DNA from: Candidatus Marinacidobacterales bacterium
GTDB lineage: Bacteria > Acidobacteriota > Vicinamibacteria > Marinacidobacterales > SMYC01
Assembly: GCA_965237955.1 (NCBI GenBank)
Contig: OZ250169.1
Coordinates: 2,912,001 to 2,976,000 of the forward strand
Direction: 5' to 3'
Length of the DNA stretch: 64,000 bases
This document shows, one piece after another, positions 11,414 to 63,946 of the stretch (positions are counted from its first letter, which is position 1; every line of letters begins with the position of its first letter). A model generated the notes under the pieces. The model saw only the letters and a list, made by a program, of their open reading frames with translations, was not told the origin of the DNA and ran no database searches. The translations under genes and the position numbers were made by a program.

Positions 11414-12019
11414 TTACTTTGCGCGGTCTTCCGGGGATTGCGAATCGCCATCGTCGACCTCTGGCTCAGCAGCCTCTGGCTCAGCAACCTCTGGCTCAGC
11501 AACCTCTGGCTCGGCAGCCTCTGGCTCGGCAGCGTCCGGCTCAGCAGCGTCCGGCTCGGCAGCCTCTGGCTTAGCAGCCTCCGGCTCGGCAACCTCCGGC
11601 TCAGCAGCGTCCGGCTCGGCAGCCTCCGGCTCAGCAGCGTCCGGCTCGGCAGCGTCCGGCTCAGCAGCGTCCGGCTCAGCAGCGTCCGGCTCGGCAGCGT
11701 CCGGCTCGGCAGCCTCTGGCTCGGCAGCGTCCGGCTCGGCAGCCTCCGGCTCAGCAGCCTCCGGCTCAGCAGCGTCCGGCTCGGCAGCGTCCGGCTCAGC
11801 AGCGTCCGGCTCGGCAGCGTCCGGCTCGGCAGCGTCCGGCTCAGCAGCGTCCGGCTCAGCAGCGTCCGGCTTGGCAGCGTCCGGCTCAGCAGCCTCCGGC
11901 TCAGCAGCCTCCGGCTCAGCAAGAACAGCGGTGATTCGTGGAACTAGCTTATGCAGCAGCTTCTCCACCTGTGCCACCAACTCCGATGTCATCTCGGCAA
12001 TCGTTTTATTGTCTTTCAT
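11414..12019 (-). CDS. Acidic low-complexity protein with about 31 EP(D/E)(A/V)A pentapeptide repeats
   Basis: ATG after gagagg RBS; short helical N-terminus then repeats. Confidence 0.6.
   Translation of the reverse strand: MKDNKTIAEMTSELVAQVEKLLHKLVPRITAVLAEPEAAEPEAAEPDAAKPDAAEPDAAEPDAAEPDAAEPDAAEPDAAEPDAAEPEAAEPEAAEPDAAEPEAAEPDAAEPDAAEPDAAEPDAAEPDAAEPEAAEPDAAEPEVAEPEAAKPEAAEPDAAEPDAAEPEAAEPEVAEPEVAEPEAAEPEVDDGDSQSPEDRAK
11459..11920. repeat. 15-bp tandem repeat array, about 31 units
   Basis: Unit (g/c)tccggctc(a/g)gcagc. Confidence 0.95.
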
Positions 12020-12112: not shown

Positions 12113-12225
12113 GGTGCTTCTGCCATCAAGTGTTGCTTCAGTTGGCCTGCCTGTGCCGGCGAACGCGTCGTGTCCAAAAATACAAACGAACTCAAGATCG
12201 GCACGCCGGGACGTTTCGGAATAGA
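12113..12225 (+). repeat. end-5 repeat (GGTGCTTCYGCCATCAAGTG) followed by end-2
   Basis: end-5 also at ~14216(-), 18780, 20306(-), 31268(-), 43930, 62159(-), 62175(-), 63899(-); end-2 starts at 12166. Confidence 0.75.
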
Positions 12226-55978: not shown

Positions 55979-58447
55979 ATGCTGGATTCCAACACCAAGC
56001 GCCGCATCGACACCGCCCGAGACATCCTGGTCGGCAAGGTTCCGGACCCTAAGAGCCAGGTCGAGCAGATCACCATCGCGCTGATCTACAAGTTCATGGA
56101 CGACATGGACGCCGAGAGCGAGGAGTTCGGCGGGAAGCGCAGCTTCTTCGCCGACGAGTTCGCCCGCTATGGATGGGCCAAGCTGATGCGCGCCGGCCTC
56201 GGCGGCCATGAGACCTTGAACCTCTACGCCGAGGCCATCACCAAGATGCCTGAGAATCCCGGCATTCCACCTTTATTTCGCGATATCTTCAACAACGCCT
56301 ACCTGCCATATCGCGATCCGGAGACCCTTCGCGCCTTTCTAAAAATCATCGACGCGTTCACGTACGACCACTCCGAGCGCCTAGGTGACGCCTTCGAGTA
56401 TCTGCTCTCGGTCCTCGGCTCGCAGGGGGACGCCGGGCAGTTCCGCACCCCGCGCCATATCATTGACTTCATCGTCGCCATCATCGAGCCGAAGAAGGGC
56501 GAAACGGTGCTGGACCCCGCGTGTGGTACCGCCGGATTTCTGATCTCATCCTACAAGCACATCCTTGCCGCCAACACTGACCCGCAAGGCGTCAGCACGC
56601 TGACGCCGGATGACAAGGAGCGGCTAGCGGCGAACTTCAAAGGCTACGACATCTCGCCCGACATGGTGCGCCTGTCTTTGGTGAACATGTACCTGCACGG
56701 CTTTGCTGCCCCGCCTATCTTCGAGTACGACACGCTGACCAGCGAGGAGCGGTGGAACGAGTATGCGGACGTAATTCTGGCGAAGAACCCTCCGTTCATG
56801 TCTCCGAAGGGTGGTATACGGCCGCACAACCGGTTCTCAGTGCAATCCAAGCGGAGTGAGGTGCTGTTCGTGGACTACATGGCCGAGCACCTGACGCCCT
56901 CTGGCCGCGCCGGCATCATCGTGCCCGAGGGAATCATCTTCCAGAGCCAGAACGCCTACAAACAGCTTCGTAAGATGCTGGTAGAGGAATACTTGGTTGC
57001 TGTCGTTTCTTTGCCGGCTGGTGTGTTCAATCCCTATTCGGGCGTCAAGACGTCGATTCTCATCCTCGACAAGTCGCTTGCGAAGAAGACGGATCGTATC
57101 GCCTTCTTGAAGATCGAAAACGACGGTTTCGGTCTGGGCGCTCAGCGGCGCCCCATTGACAAAAATGACATACCGCAGATCCAGACCGAGATTGGCAAGT
57201 ACCTGCAATGGCTGCAAGCGGGGATACCACTAGACGGCTTCCGGCCTGCGCTCGGCCTTTTCGTACCGAAGGAAAAGATCGGCGCGAACGAGGAGTACAA
57301 CCTCAGTGGAGAGCGATATCGGGAAGAAGTAGTGCAATCAAAGCACTTTCCTTGGAGAACGGTGGAATCGCTCGTCGAGACAATCACTCCTCCATTCAAG
57401 ATCCAGAAAGCTGCTTTCGGAAGCAGCGGACGATTTCCCATCATCGATCAATCTCAAGATGCTATCGCAGGCTGGACGGATGATGAGTCCACATTGGTTC
57501 ACCCCACCAAACCGTTGGTTATCTTCGGCGATCACACGTGCGCACTTAAACTGATAGATGCGCCATTCGCACAGGGAGCAGACGGCATTAAAATCTTGCA
57601 AACCGTAGACGCGCTCGACCCACTTTTCCTCTTCCGCGTTCTCCGTGCCAGACCCCTCGAGAGTAGTGGTTATCAGAGGCATTACTCAAAGCTCAGAGAA
57701 CATCAAATCCCTCTGCCGCCGTTGGAGGTACAGAAGGAGATCGTCGCCGAGATCGAGGGTTACCAGAAGGTCATCGACGGTGCCCGCGCCGTCGTCGACC
57801 ATTATAGGCCGCACATTGCCGTAGACCCTGAATGGCCGTTGGTCCCCATTAAAGAGGTGGCGGCGGTTGAGAGTGGCTTCGGCTTCCCGATAGATCGTCA
57901 GGGCCAGAATGATGAGGGGATTCCGTTTCTGAAGGTCAGCGACATGAACCTCCCAGGGAATGAAGTGCGCATCGTGTCATGGAACAATTCTGTCTCACGC
58001 GAAGTCCTGCTCGAGTTGAAGGCAAAGGCGTTTCCCACAGGAACCGTAATCTTTCCGAAGATTGGTGCAGCTATCGCGACGAACAAGAAGCGCATCCTGA
58101 CAAGGGAGTCGACCTACGACAACAACGTAATGGGCATCGTCTCTGACCGCGCCCGTCTCGTGCCTGAATACTTACACACCTATCTTCTTGGCTTCAATCT
58201 TTCACGATGGGCAAGTGACGCGCAGCCACCGTCAATGCGAAAGACGGCGGTGGAAGCCCATGATATTCCCCTCCCGCTCCTCATCATACAGCAAGCCATC
58301 GTAGCTGAGTTCGAAGCCGAGCAGGCGTTGGTCAACGCCAACCGCGAGCTGATTGCCCGCTTCGAGAAGAAGATCAGCGCTGCCATCGGGCGAGTATGGG
58401 GCGAAGCTGAACCCGTCCTGTGCCAAAACTCGGCCCTTTTGAAATAG
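55979..58447 (+). CDS. hsdM: Type I methyltransferase fused to specificity domains (HsdM-HsdS); stop codon supplied by end-1
   Basis: GQFRTP, DPACGTAGF, NPPF; two TRDs with IPLPPLEVQ/IPLPLLIIQ. Confidence 0.88.
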   Translation: MLDSNTKRRIDTARDILVGKVPDPKSQVEQITIALIYKFMDDMDAESEEFGGKRSFFADEFARYGWAKLMRAGLGGHETLNLYAEAITKMPENPGIPPLFRDIFNNAYLPYRDPETLRAFLKIIDAFTYDHSERLGDAFEYLLSVLGSQGDAGQFRTPRHIIDFIVAIIEPKKGETVLDPACGTAGFLISSYKHILAANTDPQGVSTLTPDDKERLAANFKGYDISPDMVRLSLVNMYLHGFAAPPIFEYDTLTSEERWNEYADVILAKNPPFMSPKGGIRPHNRFSVQSKRSEVLFVDYMAEHLTPSGRAGIIVPEGIIFQSQNAYKQLRKMLVEEYLVAVVSLPAGVFNPYSGVKTSILILDKSLAKKTDRIAFLKIENDGFGLGAQRRPIDKNDIPQIQTEIGKYLQWLQAGIPLDGFRPALGLFVPKEKIGANEEYNLSGERYREEVVQSKHFPWRTVESLVETITPPFKIQKAAFGSSGRFPIIDQSQDAIAGWTDDESTLVHPTKPLVIFGDHTCALKLIDAPFAQGADGIKILQTVDALDPLFLFRVLRARPLESSGYQRHYSKLREHQIPLPPLEVQKEIVAEIEGYQKVIDGARAVVDHYRPHIAVDPEWPLVPIKEVAAVESGFGFPIDRQGQNDEGIPFLKVSDMNLPGNEVRIVSWNNSVSREVLLELKAKAFPTGTVIFPKIGAAIATNKKRILTRESTYDNNVMGIVSDRARLVPEYLHTYLLGFNLSRWASDAQPPSMRKTAVEAHDIPLPLLIIQQAIVAEFEAEQALVNANRELIARFEKKISAAIGRVWGEAEPVLCQNSALLK

Positions 58448-58532: not shown

Positions 58533-59094
58533 CGTCCTGTGCCAAAACTCGGCCCTTTTGAAATAGACCACAAATCAGCAGCTTAGACGCCCTTGGAATC
58601 CGCGCAGAATCGAGGGTATTTCGCGCCGCAGGGCTGGCTTCCGACCCCAGAGCAGCGGGTGGCGAGCGACAGGCCCACCGGGGGTGCGCACGGCTGGCTC
58701 AAATCGGCTGCGGGGCGAGCTACGGGCAGTGAACTTCGCACTCGGAAGTCCCTCATTAGACTGGACTTTATCGAGCACAAGAGCGAACGTTCGGGGATGC
58801 CGCAGGATACAGGGGTTGGCCGGAACGTCGGTTTGGACGGTTTGGACTTCGCCAGCTTACGGCGGGTCTGGGAGCAGACCTTTGGGGCTGCTCCTCCAAG
58901 CTCGCTCTCGCGTGTTTTCCTGCGCCGCGTTCTTGCGTACGAACGCCAGTGCCGGACCCTTGGCTGGCATTCGGCCACAACCCGGCGCGCTCTGGCTGCC
59001 ATGGCGAACGGGACGCCAGGCAACGGCGCCGCCGCTCCCGCAGGGTCCGTTTCTGCCGGCACCCATCTCGTCCGTGAGTGGAATGGCCGGACCT
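58533..59094 (+). mobile_element. end-1-capped DUF2924 module, truncated
   Basis: Cut at EWNGRT by end-1 at 59095. Confidence 0.85.
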
Positions 59095-59254
59095 CGTCCT
59101 GTGCCAAAACTCGGCCCTTTTGAAATAGGCCATAAATCAGCAACTTAGTGTCTGTGTTTGCGACCGGGCCAAGGGCCGTGGGCTTTACAATCGTCTTGGG
59201 CGGGCGGGTCGTCACCATGCAGATGACCACCTAGTCGAGAGCGAATATCGAAGC
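59095..59254. mobile_element. Isolated right end of the end-1 IS
   Basis: Matches 51871..52030. Confidence 0.85.
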
Positions 59255-59572: not shown

Positions 59573-60258
59573 TCACACCGCAGCCTCCTCGGGGGCGGCG
59601 GCGAGGTCGTCGGTGAGGGCATTGGTCTCGTCGCGAGGCTCCGGTTCCTCGGCCTCGTCCGGAAGCCGCGCCGCCGCCTCGCGCACATCGAGCTTCCCGG
59701 TAACTACATCAGCGACCAGGCGGGTGCGGTATTCGCGGAGAAGAGAGAGTTCGCCGTGCGCGAGGTCAATAGCACGCCGTGCGTCTGCCGACTCTTTGCT
59801 GACGACGTCGACGATGCCACGCTGCTCTTCCGGTGGCGGACACAACAACTTGATACGAAGGAACTCTTCCGGGTACATCCTCAGTCGTGACGAGCGGATA
59901 CCCGTTGACCGACGGATGTACTCGCTCTTGTATGGCGCCGTACGCAGCAGAAGGTCGGCGTACTCGCCAAGCAGTCTCGAAGAGCGGTGAGATCGGTAGA
60001 CAGCATACGAGGGACTAACTATTCCAGCCTGCCTAGCAACGCCTAGAGCGGCCATCCAGGCCCACATCGTATTGATGACTAGGTCGCCGGGCTTACACAG
60101 CTTGTGCCCAACGTGTGACACTGCCATGAACATCGTGATGTTCTTCTCACTTCGCGGCGTTACTCCGGTAATGTGAGACACGGACAGCAGTTCCTCTGAA
60201 CCAGTCTCAGAGCGCTCATCCGCTTCCCGGAAGTGCCATTTCGCCGGGCGTAGGTCCC
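59573..60258 (-). pseudogene. hsdS: Type I R-M specificity subunit, C-terminal half
   Basis: GIVSPSY, PPPEEQ, LREYRTRLVADVVTGKLDVR; cut by end-1. Confidence 0.85.
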
Positions 60259-60510
60259 CGTCCTGTGCCAAAACTCAGCCCTTTTGAAATAGACCATTAA
60301 TCAGCAGCTTAGTGTCTGTTGTGCCTTCTATTTATTCATCCGCGCGTCCCGAACTTGATTGATCTTCGGTCTACCAGCACCATGCCGGCATGATTTCGTC
60401 GTTGGTTCCCGCTCTCATCTCTGCCTTCAAGGTTCGTCGCGAGCTAGCTCTCGAGAATGTCACTCTTCGGGAGCAGCTCGCCGTCCTCCACCATTCCGTG
60501 AAACGGCCGC
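60259..60510 (+). mobile_element. end-1 plus end-4 plus degenerate integrase N-terminus
   Basis: MISSLVPALISAFKVRRELALENV. Confidence 0.7.
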
Positions 60511-60789
60511 TGGTTTTGGTGCCGCGTAACCCGCTCGTGTGCTAGAGTTTGAGCCTGATTTCGAGAGACGCAGTTCTTTCGGCGATGCGGGCTGGGCTGA
60601 CCACACGGTGCCTGACGTTCAGAGACACCTTCGTGTGCACGCCGACATCCTCATTAATGGCGTTCGCCGACACAGGCAGGCCAGCTGACACTAGCATTCA
60701 AACACGGCGTAGCAACATATCTGGACTCCTCTAGTCAAGCCCCTTTCTTAATAAATCTTCCATCGAAGCTGCGCATCCATCGCGTCGTG

Positions 60790-61020
60790 ACGAGTGGGTC
60801 AGACTGCAAACGTATCTTCGGCCTCAGTGAGGAGCGTCTTGGGTGCTCCGGGCCATGATGGAAAATCCGCGCGCGAGGAGCCAATCACTTTGAACGACCT
60901 CTTAGGGCCAGTGTTGCTATCGGCTTGACCCCGCGCCGGTCCGACCGGTACGCCATCAGTTGGATGGGTATCGTCGCAGCCTCTTTTGGAAGGGAAAAAG
61001 GAAAACACGAAAGTGGAGCC
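60790..61020 (-). ncRNA. Predicted bridge/seek RNA in the 3' non-coding end of the IS
   Basis: Two internal loops whose strands match the target (AGCAACACT/TCAAAGTG) and the circle junction (TTCCATCAT/AGATA). Confidence 0.7.
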
Positions 61021-61027
61021 TCTAAGT

Positions 61028-62059
61028 CTAAGCGGCCATCGGCGACTGGAATTCACTCTCGCGGGTGGAGACGGCCCAGACGATCCGGGCGAGTTTGTTG
61101 GCGACAGCAATCACGGCCTTGTTGTGTCCCCGCGAGCGGTGGACCTTCCGAGCCCAGGCGCGGAGCTTGTCGGGCGGGCTCTTACTGACGTTCGCCGCGC
61201 GGAGCACGGCGCGCCCGCCCTGGGTGAGGAGCATACGGAGGTAGGAGTCGCCACGCTTGGTGATGCGTCCGAGGCGGCGAATGTCGCCACTGGAGTTTTC
61301 CTTGGGAACTAGGCCGAGGTAGCTCGAGAAGCGGCGCCCCGATGGGAAGCGGCGAAGATCGCCGACGAAGCCCACGATGGCGGTCGCGGTCAGAAGTCCG
61401 ATGCCGGGAATGGCGAGAAGTCGTTGGACTTCAGGAAGCTGCTTGGTGAGCGCCTTGAGCTCGTGCTCGATGCCAGCGCACTTGTCCTTGAGTTCTCGAA
61501 TCTCGGAGCAGGCATCACGGAGATGCGAACGGAGCACGTCGGGCAAATCAGAATCAGCGTCTTCGACGAGTTCGAAGAGGGCGGGCACGACGAAGTGAGC
61601 GCCCTTTGGGATGATGAATCCGAGTTCGCGCAGGATCCCGCGTACGGCATTGATGCGTGCGGTCCGTGTGGAGAGCCATCCTGAGCGCAGGCGATGGAGC
61701 GCGGCGAGGCTGTGCTGGTGCACGGACTTAATGGGCACGGGAAGAATCTCCTCGTTCCTGTAGGCCTCGAGCAACGCTTTGGCGTCGGCGCGGTCGTTCT
61801 TGCTCCCGCGTCGATAGGGCCTCACGAGGTGAGGTGGGAGCAGGACGACGTCGTGTCCCAACCTTCGGAACGTCCTTGCCCAGAAGTGAGCAGAGCCGCA
61901 GGCTTCGAGAAGCACGGTGGCAGCGCTCTGTTTGGCAAAAAACGACACCAACTTGGGTCGACTCACACGGAGTTGCTTGGACACCTTCCCCGCTTCTCCC
62001 GAGATGGCAATCTCGAAGACGTTCTTTGCAAGATCCACAGCGATCGTCGTATCTTTCAT
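61028..62059 (-). CDS. IS110-family DEDD recombinase/transposase
   Basis: AVDLAK, LEACG, KNDRADA, GLVP..NSSG, AVANKLAR. Confidence 0.93.
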   Translation of the reverse strand: MKDTTIAVDLAKNVFEIAISGEAGKVSKQLRVSRPKLVSFFAKQSAATVLLEACGSAHFWARTFRRLGHDVVLLPPHLVRPYRRGSKNDRADAKALLEAYRNEEILPVPIKSVHQHSLAALHRLRSGWLSTRTARINAVRGILRELGFIIPKGAHFVVPALFELVEDADSDLPDVLRSHLRDACSEIRELKDKCAGIEHELKALTKQLPEVQRLLAIPGIGLLTATAIVGFVGDLRRFPSGRRFSSYLGLVPKENSSGDIRRLGRITKRGDSYLRMLLTQGGRAVLRAANVSKSPPDKLRAWARKVHRSRGHNKAVIAVANKLARIVWAVSTRESEFQSPMAA

Positions 62060-62187
62060 TCGGACTCCTCCTTTTCGATGCGTATTCGACTGACTTTGGC
62101 ACATCGATGCCGTCTATGTCAGCGGAGGAGTCCATTCCATCACTTGATGGCGGAAGCACTTGATGGCGGAAGCACCGAATAGAGTCC

Positions 62188-63671
62188 ATGCCGACGGCAA
62201 GAACCAGCGAGAGCCACCCACTGCGCATCACGGCGATGACCCTGGGCGACGGCCGTGGCCGGATCGGCTTCTCGCAGTGCCCCGGTAGGATCGATCACTA
62301 CGCAATATCCGGGCCCTGGAAGCGGGATCTCGACACCGACCTCGACGCGATTCAGCGCTGGGGAGCGACTGCGGTGGTCAGCCTGATCACCCACGAAGAG
62401 ATCCCCGATCTGAAGGTGCACGATCTCCCGAGGGCGGTTCGAGACCGGCACATGGAGTGGTGGCATGCCCCGATTCCCGACGGAGAGGCACCGGAACAGG
62501 ACTTCGAGCACGCCTGGAAGGCCACCGGCGAGTCCATCCGGAACCGGCTGCGGCTCGGCTTCGACGTGCTGCTCCACTGCCGGGGTGGTCTGGGACGCGC
62601 CGGGACCATCACAGCCCGCCTGCTGGTGGAGTTGGGCGTGCAACCGGACGATGCGATCCGCCGCGTGCGCGACGCCCGCGAATGGACCATCGAGAACGGC
62701 TCCCAGCTGGCTCACGTGAGGCAGTGTTCGGCACAAGCACCATCGGTTCCATCCCGGAGACCGCGGACGACATCCACGACCGGGCGCTCGGGGCCTTCCT
62801 CGGTCTGGCGGTGGGCGACGCGGTCGGCACGACGCTCGAATTCTGCTCCCGCGATACGCAGCCGCGTCTAGAAGACATGGTCGGTGGCGGCCCGTTCGAT
62901 CTGCCGGCCGGCGCTTGGACCGACGACACGGCCATGGCGCTGGCCCTTGCCGACAGCCTGGCGGAATCCAAGACGCTCGACTGCCGGGACCTGATGGACC
63001 GTTTCGTGAAGTGGTGGCGAGACGGAGACTACTCGTGGAGCGGAGACTGCTTCGACATCGGAAACACGACCTGCCAAGCGCTCACCCGGTACCTACGGAC
63101 GGGTGACCCGGTCGCGGGTTCGACCGATCCCTTGAGCGCAGGCAACGGCTCGCTGATGCGGCTCGCCCCCGTTGCGCTCCGGTTCAGGCACGACCGGCCG
63201 CGCCTGATCGCAGCAGCCGCCGACCAGTCCCGGACGACCCACGGAGCCGAGGAAGCAGTGGACGCCTGCCGGGCGTTCGGCGAGCTCCTAGCGGACGCCA
63301 TCGCCGGGTCACCGTTCTCGGACGTTCTGGCTCCGAGACGGTTCACGGGAGCGGCGGCAATCACTCAGGTCATAGCCGGCAGCTGGCGAGGACGGACACG
63401 GGATACGATCCGCTCCAGCGGGTACGTCGTTCACACGCTCGAAGCCGCCATCTGGTCAGTCGCCCGCACCGGAGACTTCCGCAGCGCGGTGCTGCTCGCG
63501 GCCAACCTGGCCGACGACGCCGATACGGTAGCAGCAGTGACGGGGCAGCTCGCCGGCGCCCTCTACGGCCTGAACGCCATCCCCGACCACTGGCGGGAAC
63601 GCGTTGCCTGGAAGGATCGACTCCTGGCAGCGGCGCGGCGGTTGCTGTCGGAACCCCTTGCCGACCGGTAG
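62188..63671 (+). pseudogene. CDKN3-like dual-specificity phosphatase fused to ADP-ribosylglycohydrolase; one frameshift near 62740
   Basis: HCRGGLGRAG; GDAVG, WTDDT, GNGSLMR, DADT. Confidence 0.85.
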
Positions 63672-63689: not shown

Positions 63690-63778
63690 AAGCACGGCTC
63701 TTGACCCGGTCGCAAACACAGACACTAAGCTGCTGATATTATGGTCTGTTTCAAAAGGCCGAGTTTTGGCACAGGACG
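63690..63778 (-). repeat. Degenerate end-1 arm
   Basis: gcaaacacagacactaagctgctg...ggcacaggacg. Confidence 0.85.
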
Positions 63779-63946
63779 GGATAGACTTTTTGCGGAGCAC
63801 ACCTGACGATGAGGGAACTGTGTCTTCAGAATTCTGGTTCAAACTCTAGCACGCGAGCGGATTACGCGGCGGCCACCAACACTTTGATGGCGGAAGCACC
63901 CGCCGATCTTCTTTTTTGCGGATCACAGGTAGCGAGGAGTAGCGCA

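Follow-up and report, generated by a model that had tools for sequence, protein, structure and literature searches.

Why does an insertion sequence of the IS1111 type lie at one exact base inside the terminal repeat of another mobile element, and is this base chosen by an RNA that the element itself encodes? The question is raised by a locus near the end of the window, that is, the whole stretch of 64,000 nucleotides analyzed here. A first-pass annotation, made from the letters alone, had described the locus as an RNA-guided parasite of a repeat family that it called end-5. We addressed this proposal by examining the ends of the element, its host repeat, its non-coding region, and its relatives. 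The insertion and its immediate surroundings comprise the following features.

60520..60717, plus strand: body of an IS1-like host miniature of the ~244-bp type, with its left terminal repeat missing here
60710..60717, plus strand: left half of the target, TAGCAA, and CA core, lying inward in the host repeat (a junction type counted 18 times in the source genome)
60718..62140, minus strand: IS1111-group element of the IS110 family, 1423 bp (from the same ends in 16 full copies and the empty allele)
60722..60731, no strand: 10-bp subterminal inverted repeat at the right end, pairing in sequence with 62125-62134
61028..62059, minus strand: DEDD recombinase/transposase, 343 aa from MKDTT (from Pfam, NCBIfam, and motif reading)
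62125..62134, no strand: 10-bp subterminal inverted repeat at the left end, partner of 60722-60731
62141..62156, plus strand: 16-bp tandem duplication that starts exactly at the core, a copy of 62157-62172
62157..62176, plus strand: terminal inverted repeat of the host, outer 20 of its 23 bp

The source genome (G000, 8.13 Mb) contains 16 full copies with 97.9-100% identity, ends equivalent to 60718 and 62140, and a common CA, which abuts the element at either end (60716-17 and 62141-42); it also holds fragments of the element and one paralog at 91%. The element had been placed at 60718..62176, of which the IS1111 type and the left boundary stand, but the true end is 62140, 62176 marking where the host repeat ends on its outer side. 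As had been proposed, excision of the element together with one CA restores a repeat, yielding TAGCAACACTTGATGGCGGAAGCAC; a real empty allele exists in contigs of other runs, where the joint from 60715 to 62157 was observed in five of eight (X3, X5, X6, X14, and X15, with a shorter side of just 20 letters in X5, X14, and X15). The empty allele thus confirmed the boundaries and identified 62141-62156 as an added duplication, which has no counterpart in that allele and is present in three of the four copies of the window locus. The insertion has a fixed position and orientation in a specific target, and no bases are added beyond the shared core.

The transposase reading frame, with a second in-frame ATG at 62104, carries the domains DEDD_Tnp_IS110 (PF01548) and Transposase_20 (PF02371) and scores 308.9 bits against NF033542 of NCBIfam (cut-off 140). 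By motif reading, its residues D9, E52, D89, and D92, and S257 of an SG motif, were equated with D11/E60/D102/D105/S241 of IS621 (PMC11208158). Within the IS110 family, the IS1111 group is described as having a DEDD (RuvC-like) domain and a Tnp domain, an SG motif, and 330-350 aa (PMC11187229), subterminal inverted repeats of 7-17 bp (PMC11208160), and a long downstream non-coding region beside such repeats (PMC11208160, PMC11187229). The subterminal repeats of the present element, at 10 bp, lie inside this range, and 310 bp of non-coding DNA stand downstream of the transposase versus 81 bp upstream.

The repeat named end-5 turns out to be 23 bp long and to form the terminal inverted repeats of an IS1-like element and of miniatures derived from it. 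About 200 such ends occur in G000, their similarity ending sharply after the last C, and inverted pairs of them bound miniatures of ~165 and 244 bp as well as a 1197-bp element with a single reading frame. The best model for this frame was NF033558 (IS1-family transposase; E 5.9e-22, with 78.6 bits below the cut-off of 100), PF03400 matched it weakly, and most of the 120 listed relatives of the frame carry PF03400, the named ones reading "IS1 family transposase". The full-length family measures 1197-1201 bp (G000:C1:3086457-3087653; L165-L178), and 268 exact ends were counted in genome G005. IS1 elements have terminal inverted repeats of ~23 bp that start with GG, and they duplicate 8-9 bp of their target; the 23-bp repeats of the host agree with the former. 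Target duplication was found in none of 39 paired ends in G000, where 200 ends yielded no 9-mer partners, nor in a separate comparison (0 of 17), and 15 pairs in relatives gave no match longer than 5 bp; we therefore call the host IS1-like only. A family with no target duplication in any intact copy examined is unusual for IS1. The left host repeat expected before 60520 appears as loose ends in other runs. Two empty host repeats elsewhere in the window bear on target choice.

12113..12135, minus strand: empty host repeat AAGCAACA, with one mismatch to the left guide
63876..63900, plus strand: empty host repeat in the TTT form, which is rare; left half mismatched at two positions

A 15-bp tandem array, which probably encodes a low-complexity peptide on the minus strand, lies upstream of the former (11700-11920).

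The non-coding region downstream of the transposase contains the predicted RNA and its guides, together with a possible promoter element.

60800..60950, minus strand: predicted bridge/seek RNA, ends approximate (from the consensus fold of 28 homologs)
60911..60919, minus strand: left target guide UAGCAACAC, an 8/8 match to TAGCAACA
60884..60894, minus strand: right target guide with core, then an AU dinucleotide at the handshake positions (guide and core alone, 60886-60894; AAG-UG pairs with CA-CTT)
60856..60865, minus strand: left donor guide, matching TTCCATCA at the left end of the element plus the core
60809..60817, minus strand: right donor guide AGAUA, core CG, and a UU dinucleotide at the handshake positions (guide and core alone, 60811-60817; from parsing of the RNA loops)
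60733..60738, minus strand: TTGACT, possible -35 box of a circle-junction promoter (junction computed)

The minus-strand 3' end folds as the first-pass annotation had drawn it (z = -2.35), and the consensus fold from 28 aligned homologous regions has two internal loops, with two-sided (compensatory) change in 13 of its 26 pairs. A search of 60400-62400 against Rfam returned no relevant family and two chance matches. The first loop contains UAGCAACA, identical to the left target with the core. The strand at 60910-60919 had been read as complementary to one half of the target, and indeed a guide at 60911-60919 matches at all eight positions; the loop strands had been placed correctly, but the final U of the first-pass reading AGCAACACT aligns with a linker U that is near-invariant among homologs and is probably a non-guide base. 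In the second loop, UUCCAUCA equals the left end of the element plus the core and AGAUA pairs with the right end, so that both donor strands match the predicted donor junction and lie where they had been put (60856-60865, with AGAUA opposite). The CG that follows the right donor guide leaves one mismatch, to the A of the CA core, and a sister variant has UG. At the handshake positions as defined in PMC11208158, AU fits the AT of the donor and UU the AA of the target. When the 311-nt end was shuffled 20,000 times, an 8/8 match to the left target turned up in 0.36% of the cases, and matches to the left target and the left donor together in none. The right target guide pairs through just three bases beyond the core without a bulge; a longer pairing, which would require one bulged A, is hinted at by three non-repeat insertions that retain the GA and by an empty site reading TAGCAACACTTAA. 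The register of the left guide is slid by 1-2 nt relative to 15 of 16 other parsed loci and is shared by L082 only. Coverage of the RNA region by contigs from RNA libraries is thin or absent, and such contigs are no evidence for or against expression. The element carries the testable features of the IS1111 group and of bridge-RNA systems.

These features lead us to a reading to which we give a probability of roughly 93%: by analogy with characterized relatives, an RNA-loaded DEDD recombinase would pair with the right end of the host and with the element's ends in their joined form and exchange strands at the CA core. The predicted bridge RNA would be made from the 3' end of the element and bind the recombinase; its loops would pair with the host repeat and with the element's own joined ends, target and donor being opened; and strand exchange would occur at the CA core, through either a copied-out circle or direct junction transfer. 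RNA production, recombinase binding, the circle, and strand exchange are modeled here on IS621, ISEc11, and CazIS110-1; the observations on the element and its relatives are its ends and core, its copies, the host family, and guides that match their targets and covary with them among homologs. A circular intermediate with a promoter at its junction counts among the traits of the IS1111 group; no circle joint was present in contigs of eight of 19 runs, a type of data that cannot show absence. No complete promoter was found in the linear element, and the -10 box formed on joining of the ends would be weak, as judged from the computed junction.

The location of other copies had been named beforehand as decisive for RNA guidance, and the copies do lie in end-5 repeats: 24 of 25 left ends in G000 and 55 of 61 in five relatives, the latter from 72 loci, of which 11 had no parsed left end. 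The sole exception in G000 is the paralog, which is in an attC-like site. Among the 25 right ends in G000, 18 follow TAGCAACA, six are internal tandem junctions, and one belongs to the paralog. The element sits at one fixed base in the right terminal inverted repeat of the IS1-like element and its miniatures, occupying one full-length host copy and many miniatures. The right end of the host carries TAGCAACA, and its left end usually carries CACCAACA or CGCCAACA; a left guide that reads TAGCAACA, present at the right but not the left end, would explain this preference.

A search for perfect 17-mer sites across 55 genomes revealed 18 filled and 0 empty sites in G000. The corresponding filled:empty counts were 3:0 in G053, 30:74 in G005, 4:12 in G040, 2:19 in G052, 3:51 in G054, and 1:4 in G007, and genomes with no filled site had 39 (G042), 20 (G004), and 16 (G006) empty ones. 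Many perfect sites are empty in G005, G040, G052, and G054, so that the saturation seen in G000, though real, does not hold generally. G000 itself has one empty perfect 13-mer, within a truncated repeat, and most repeat ends, those with guide mismatches, are empty. These results indicated that the guide match, and not the repeat as such, decides site use. The six non-repeat left ends in relatives all come from record CBDCYI01, in which L037 and L038 keep AGCAACA-CTTGA outside the repeat and the other four (L034, L035, L040, and L050) match the guide poorly. The TTT variant near 63880, which had been singled out as matching the second target half fully, does exist; it is rare and empty and has two mismatches in the left half, so that it is not the preferred target, and as a candidate for the true target it was rejected (three empty copies versus 39 with TT, and one junction-type motif versus 27). 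We also set aside the idea that the host escapes through guide mismatches: unused sites do differ from the guide, but filling alone predicts that.

Would the same distribution arise if the element had inserted once or a few times and had then been carried as cargo of the IS1-like transposase or within larger duplications, so that its copies overstate targeting? Of the 23-bp repeat, 20 bases precede the point of insertion, and positions 22-23 are restored by the first bases of the element. In all, 22 of the 23 positions are rebuilt, position 21 being changed to a base seen in two of 179 empty ends, and 13 of the 21 occupied ends deviate from the repeat consensus by a single mismatch. A repeat rebuilt except at position 21 would suit such passive spread, and so would the shared flanks of the four copies of the window locus. 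Against it, the copies lie in different host types (full-length, 244-bp miniature, and others), one guide variant was found in three host types (L030, L031, and L046), an empty allele with the same flanks exists, no perfect repeat was left empty in G000, and non-repeat sites keep a guide match. Passive spread as the sole cause is thus largely refuted, and we regard it as improbable overall. Since insertion rebuilds 22 of the 23 repeat positions, we do not postulate harm to the host element. The first-pass phrase "RNA-guided parasite" therefore divides: guidance by RNA is supported by the copies and the covariation, and "parasite" is fair for site use only.

Covariation between guides and targets in homologs had likewise been set beforehand as a point on which the proposal would turn. 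Relatives were collected as 76 loci from genomes and 53 from metagenomes; 30 loci were parsed, three were dropped for short flanks and ten for near-identical guides, and 17 guide groups remained. Left target guides matched their own flanks at 7.41 of 9 positions versus 4.56 when permuted, and right target guides at 3.13 of 4 versus 1.28 (n=15). None of 20,000 permutations reached the observed left or right score, with shared ancestry partly removed by the collapsing into groups. A re-parse of 17 of 20 loci (leaving out L083, L095, and L142) gave 7.0/8 versus 4.55 on the left and 2.8/3 versus 1.02 on the right, again with 0 of 50,000 permutations. In the first parse, L110 and the donor guide of L123 were parsed wrongly and the slid register of the window's element fell outside the offset range; these faults made its observed score too low. 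Handshake covariation in the donor loop was weak among the 17 groups, with matches at position 7 in six (p=0.31) and at position 6 in nine (p=0.013). A 62%-identical relative (L142 and L152, in G041) carries a further guide, which fits a repeated and partly palindromic target of another kind (left side, CAACTGCG).

The paralog in G000 (L002, G000:C1:5245814-5247236) has 93% amino-acid identity and another target guide. Its target-guide windows differ from those of the element at 4 of 11 and 5 of 11 positions (9/22), compared with 1 of 20 positions in the donor guides, the right one of which is unchanged (0 of 9). All nine positions of the paralog's left guide agree with its own flanking DNA (9/9). 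By sequence, the paralog is a natural swap of guide and target. This swap bears directly on the idea that protein directs the insertion, through contact with a repeat-bound IS1-like transposase or a fixed DNA preference of the recombinase, with the RNA match incidental. The strong enrichment at a single repeat family would fit such an idea, but a 93%-identical protein uses another target matched by its own guide, guides and targets covary across homologs, and mismatched repeat ends mostly stay empty; we consider direction by protein extremely improbable.

A subtler alternative accepts RNA guidance and holds that the target loop (seekRNA) alone matters, the donor loop being a dispensable part of the precursor, as argued for ISEc11. 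An 82-nt seekRNA suffices for movement of ISEc11 according to PMC11187229, and covariation of the donor guide was modest here (5.81 versus 5.18), as its small variation would entail. However, the sequence and fold of the donor loop are kept across 28 homologs, the right donor guide changes with the end of the element in L123, L127, and L128, and full transposition of CazIS110-1 needs the full RNA (10.1101/2025.10.25.684509). We judge a target-loop-only system unlikely, less so than passive spread, and retain pairing of both loops as the preferred reading.

From where did the guide of the element come? Scored against the customary attC box patterns, and with no shuffled control, the rebuilt site of the paralog is a 114-bp hairpin whose R boxes are 6/7 complementary, and six further loci of the 30 score at least 6/7 as attC-like under the same limit, others being short of flank or having other targets. 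The site of the element itself has no R'' box and is the end of an IS rather than an attC. Since attC insertion applies to the paralog and several homologs only, we regard the element as a relative, and not a member, of the IS1111-attC group. A crude scan found no neighboring attC within 10 kb of the paralog's site, which appears solitary; G000 encodes an integron integrase, which scores above the TIGR02249 cut-off and seems to occupy two frames, far from it (G000:C1:3346207-3347146). The top plasmid match and best-ranked named relative was ISPa25 (46% over 343 aa), which lies between integron cassettes, has the same RNA scaffold, and targets attC (PMC11187229). Phylogenetically, the paralog groups with the IS1-end elements at 100/95 support, a 79% relative falling outside, and the four IS1-end rows alone are supported by 97/75 (49-row tree) or 76 (21-row tree, which contained this split without being constrained, so that enforcing a single clade added no information). 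Given that attC-type sites are spread over the outgroups and that ISPa25 targets attC, the guide was likely re-aimed from attC to the IS1-like end by a few changes in the two target strands. The direction from attC to the IS1 end is not firm, and reversion or recombination in the paralog is a possible alternative.

The RNA-guided mechanism, the targeting of the ends of other elements, the targeting of other IS, and natural redirection are all known already. Among elements of the IS1111 group, IS4321 and IS5075 reportedly enter the terminal inverted repeat of Tn21-family transposons, always at one position (Partridge and Hall, 2003). The present element resembles them, as far as their description goes, in its fixed position within the terminal inverted repeat of another mobile element, but its host is an IS1-like element with miniatures rather than a Tn21-family transposon. 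It shares with ISPa25, of the IS1111-attC group of ISPa25, ISKpn4, and ISPst6 (PMC11187229), the left-end sequence, the subterminal repeats, and a two-loop RNA scaffold that aligns with its own, and attC-like sites as used by that group also hold the paralog and several homologs; unlike that group, its target guides match an IS1-like terminal repeat instead of attC, and its left register is slid. The target and donor loops, left and right guides, 2-nt core, and handshake positions of IS621 (PMC11208160, PMC11208158) recur here in the same order, but IS621 belongs to the IS110 group with its RNA at the left end and a CT core, whereas the present element has the RNA at the right end, a CA core, and subterminal repeats. 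ISEc21 enters IS3-family transposase genes, and guides have changed between the natural relatives ISEc21/ISMch6 and ISEc11/ISXne4 (PMC11187229), which parallels both the guide change and the use of another IS described here; compared with ISEc21/ISMch6, the pair in G000 is closer (93% versus 72% for ISMch6), resides in one genome, and uses two classes of mobile-element site. Literature searches in a collection with few subscription papers, and the searchable supplements of PMC11187229, gave no case of an IS1111 element that targets an IS1-like end; the supplements of PMC11208160 and of the preprints could list one.

The element probably adds one more clear case to the RNA-guided mechanism known from IS110/IS1111 rather than being a new kind of system, and its value, the mechanism being known, is that of a well-readable natural test set. 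One genome contains a pair of 93%-identical recombinases with two guides and targets and ~200 near-match sites sorted into used and unused, and relatives stand at different stages of filling (18:0, 30:74, and 0:39 filled:empty). This set allows direct tests of how far guides tolerate mismatches, of register slip, and of natural retargeting from one mobile-element site to another. With 22 of the 23 repeat positions restored by the element's left end, the host might remain mobile with the element inside. We put forward only tentatively, as a doubtful composite, that this one-chromosome pair records a switch from attC to an IS1-like end, made by a small number of guide substitutions and a slipped register, with every perfect host end filled, a host that may stay mobile while carrying the element, and mismatched ends that stay free.

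Several by-products accompany the copies. At the six internal junctions in G000, a part of the element is repeated, starting precisely at its right end. Tandem partial copies (G000:C1:1133673-1135433, 3027300-3029197, 3051912-3054420, and 7863075-7864835), which likewise start right at this end, join at internal look-alike sites, some of their joints having a CG core that matches the CG of the right donor guide, and a similar joint, from 61250 to 60718, was observed in runs X1 and X2. After one copy of the locus (G000:C1:2861920-2862400) there is an array of about eight 48-62-bp units, each running from the IS core into the start of the downstream phosphatase gene. Half-match junction transfer (10.1101/2025.10.25.684509) and tandem expansion of IS110 loci (10.64898/2026.08.14.744561) have been described, and the tandem junctions, the 48-62-bp array, and the 16-bp duplication fit these processes and thus known behavior.

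Other mobile-element traces and reading frames surround the locus. A second abundant repeated end, starting CGTCCTGTGCCAAAA, is located at 60260-60300 and 63740-63780 of the window; ends of this type often abut IS1-like ends and truncate IS1111 fragments elsewhere in the genome. At 62188-63671, a dual-specificity phosphatase reading frame overlaps an ADP-ribosylglycohydrolase reading frame in another frame, possibly as a frameshifted fusion, and the first part of the region recurs in four copies of the locus. Amid many mobile-element remnants, the upstream part of the window encodes a fused type I methyltransferase-specificity protein (55979-58447), a DUF2924 protein (58593-59123), and, at 59573-60271, a reading frame with no Pfam match that reads like a fragment of a specificity subunit.
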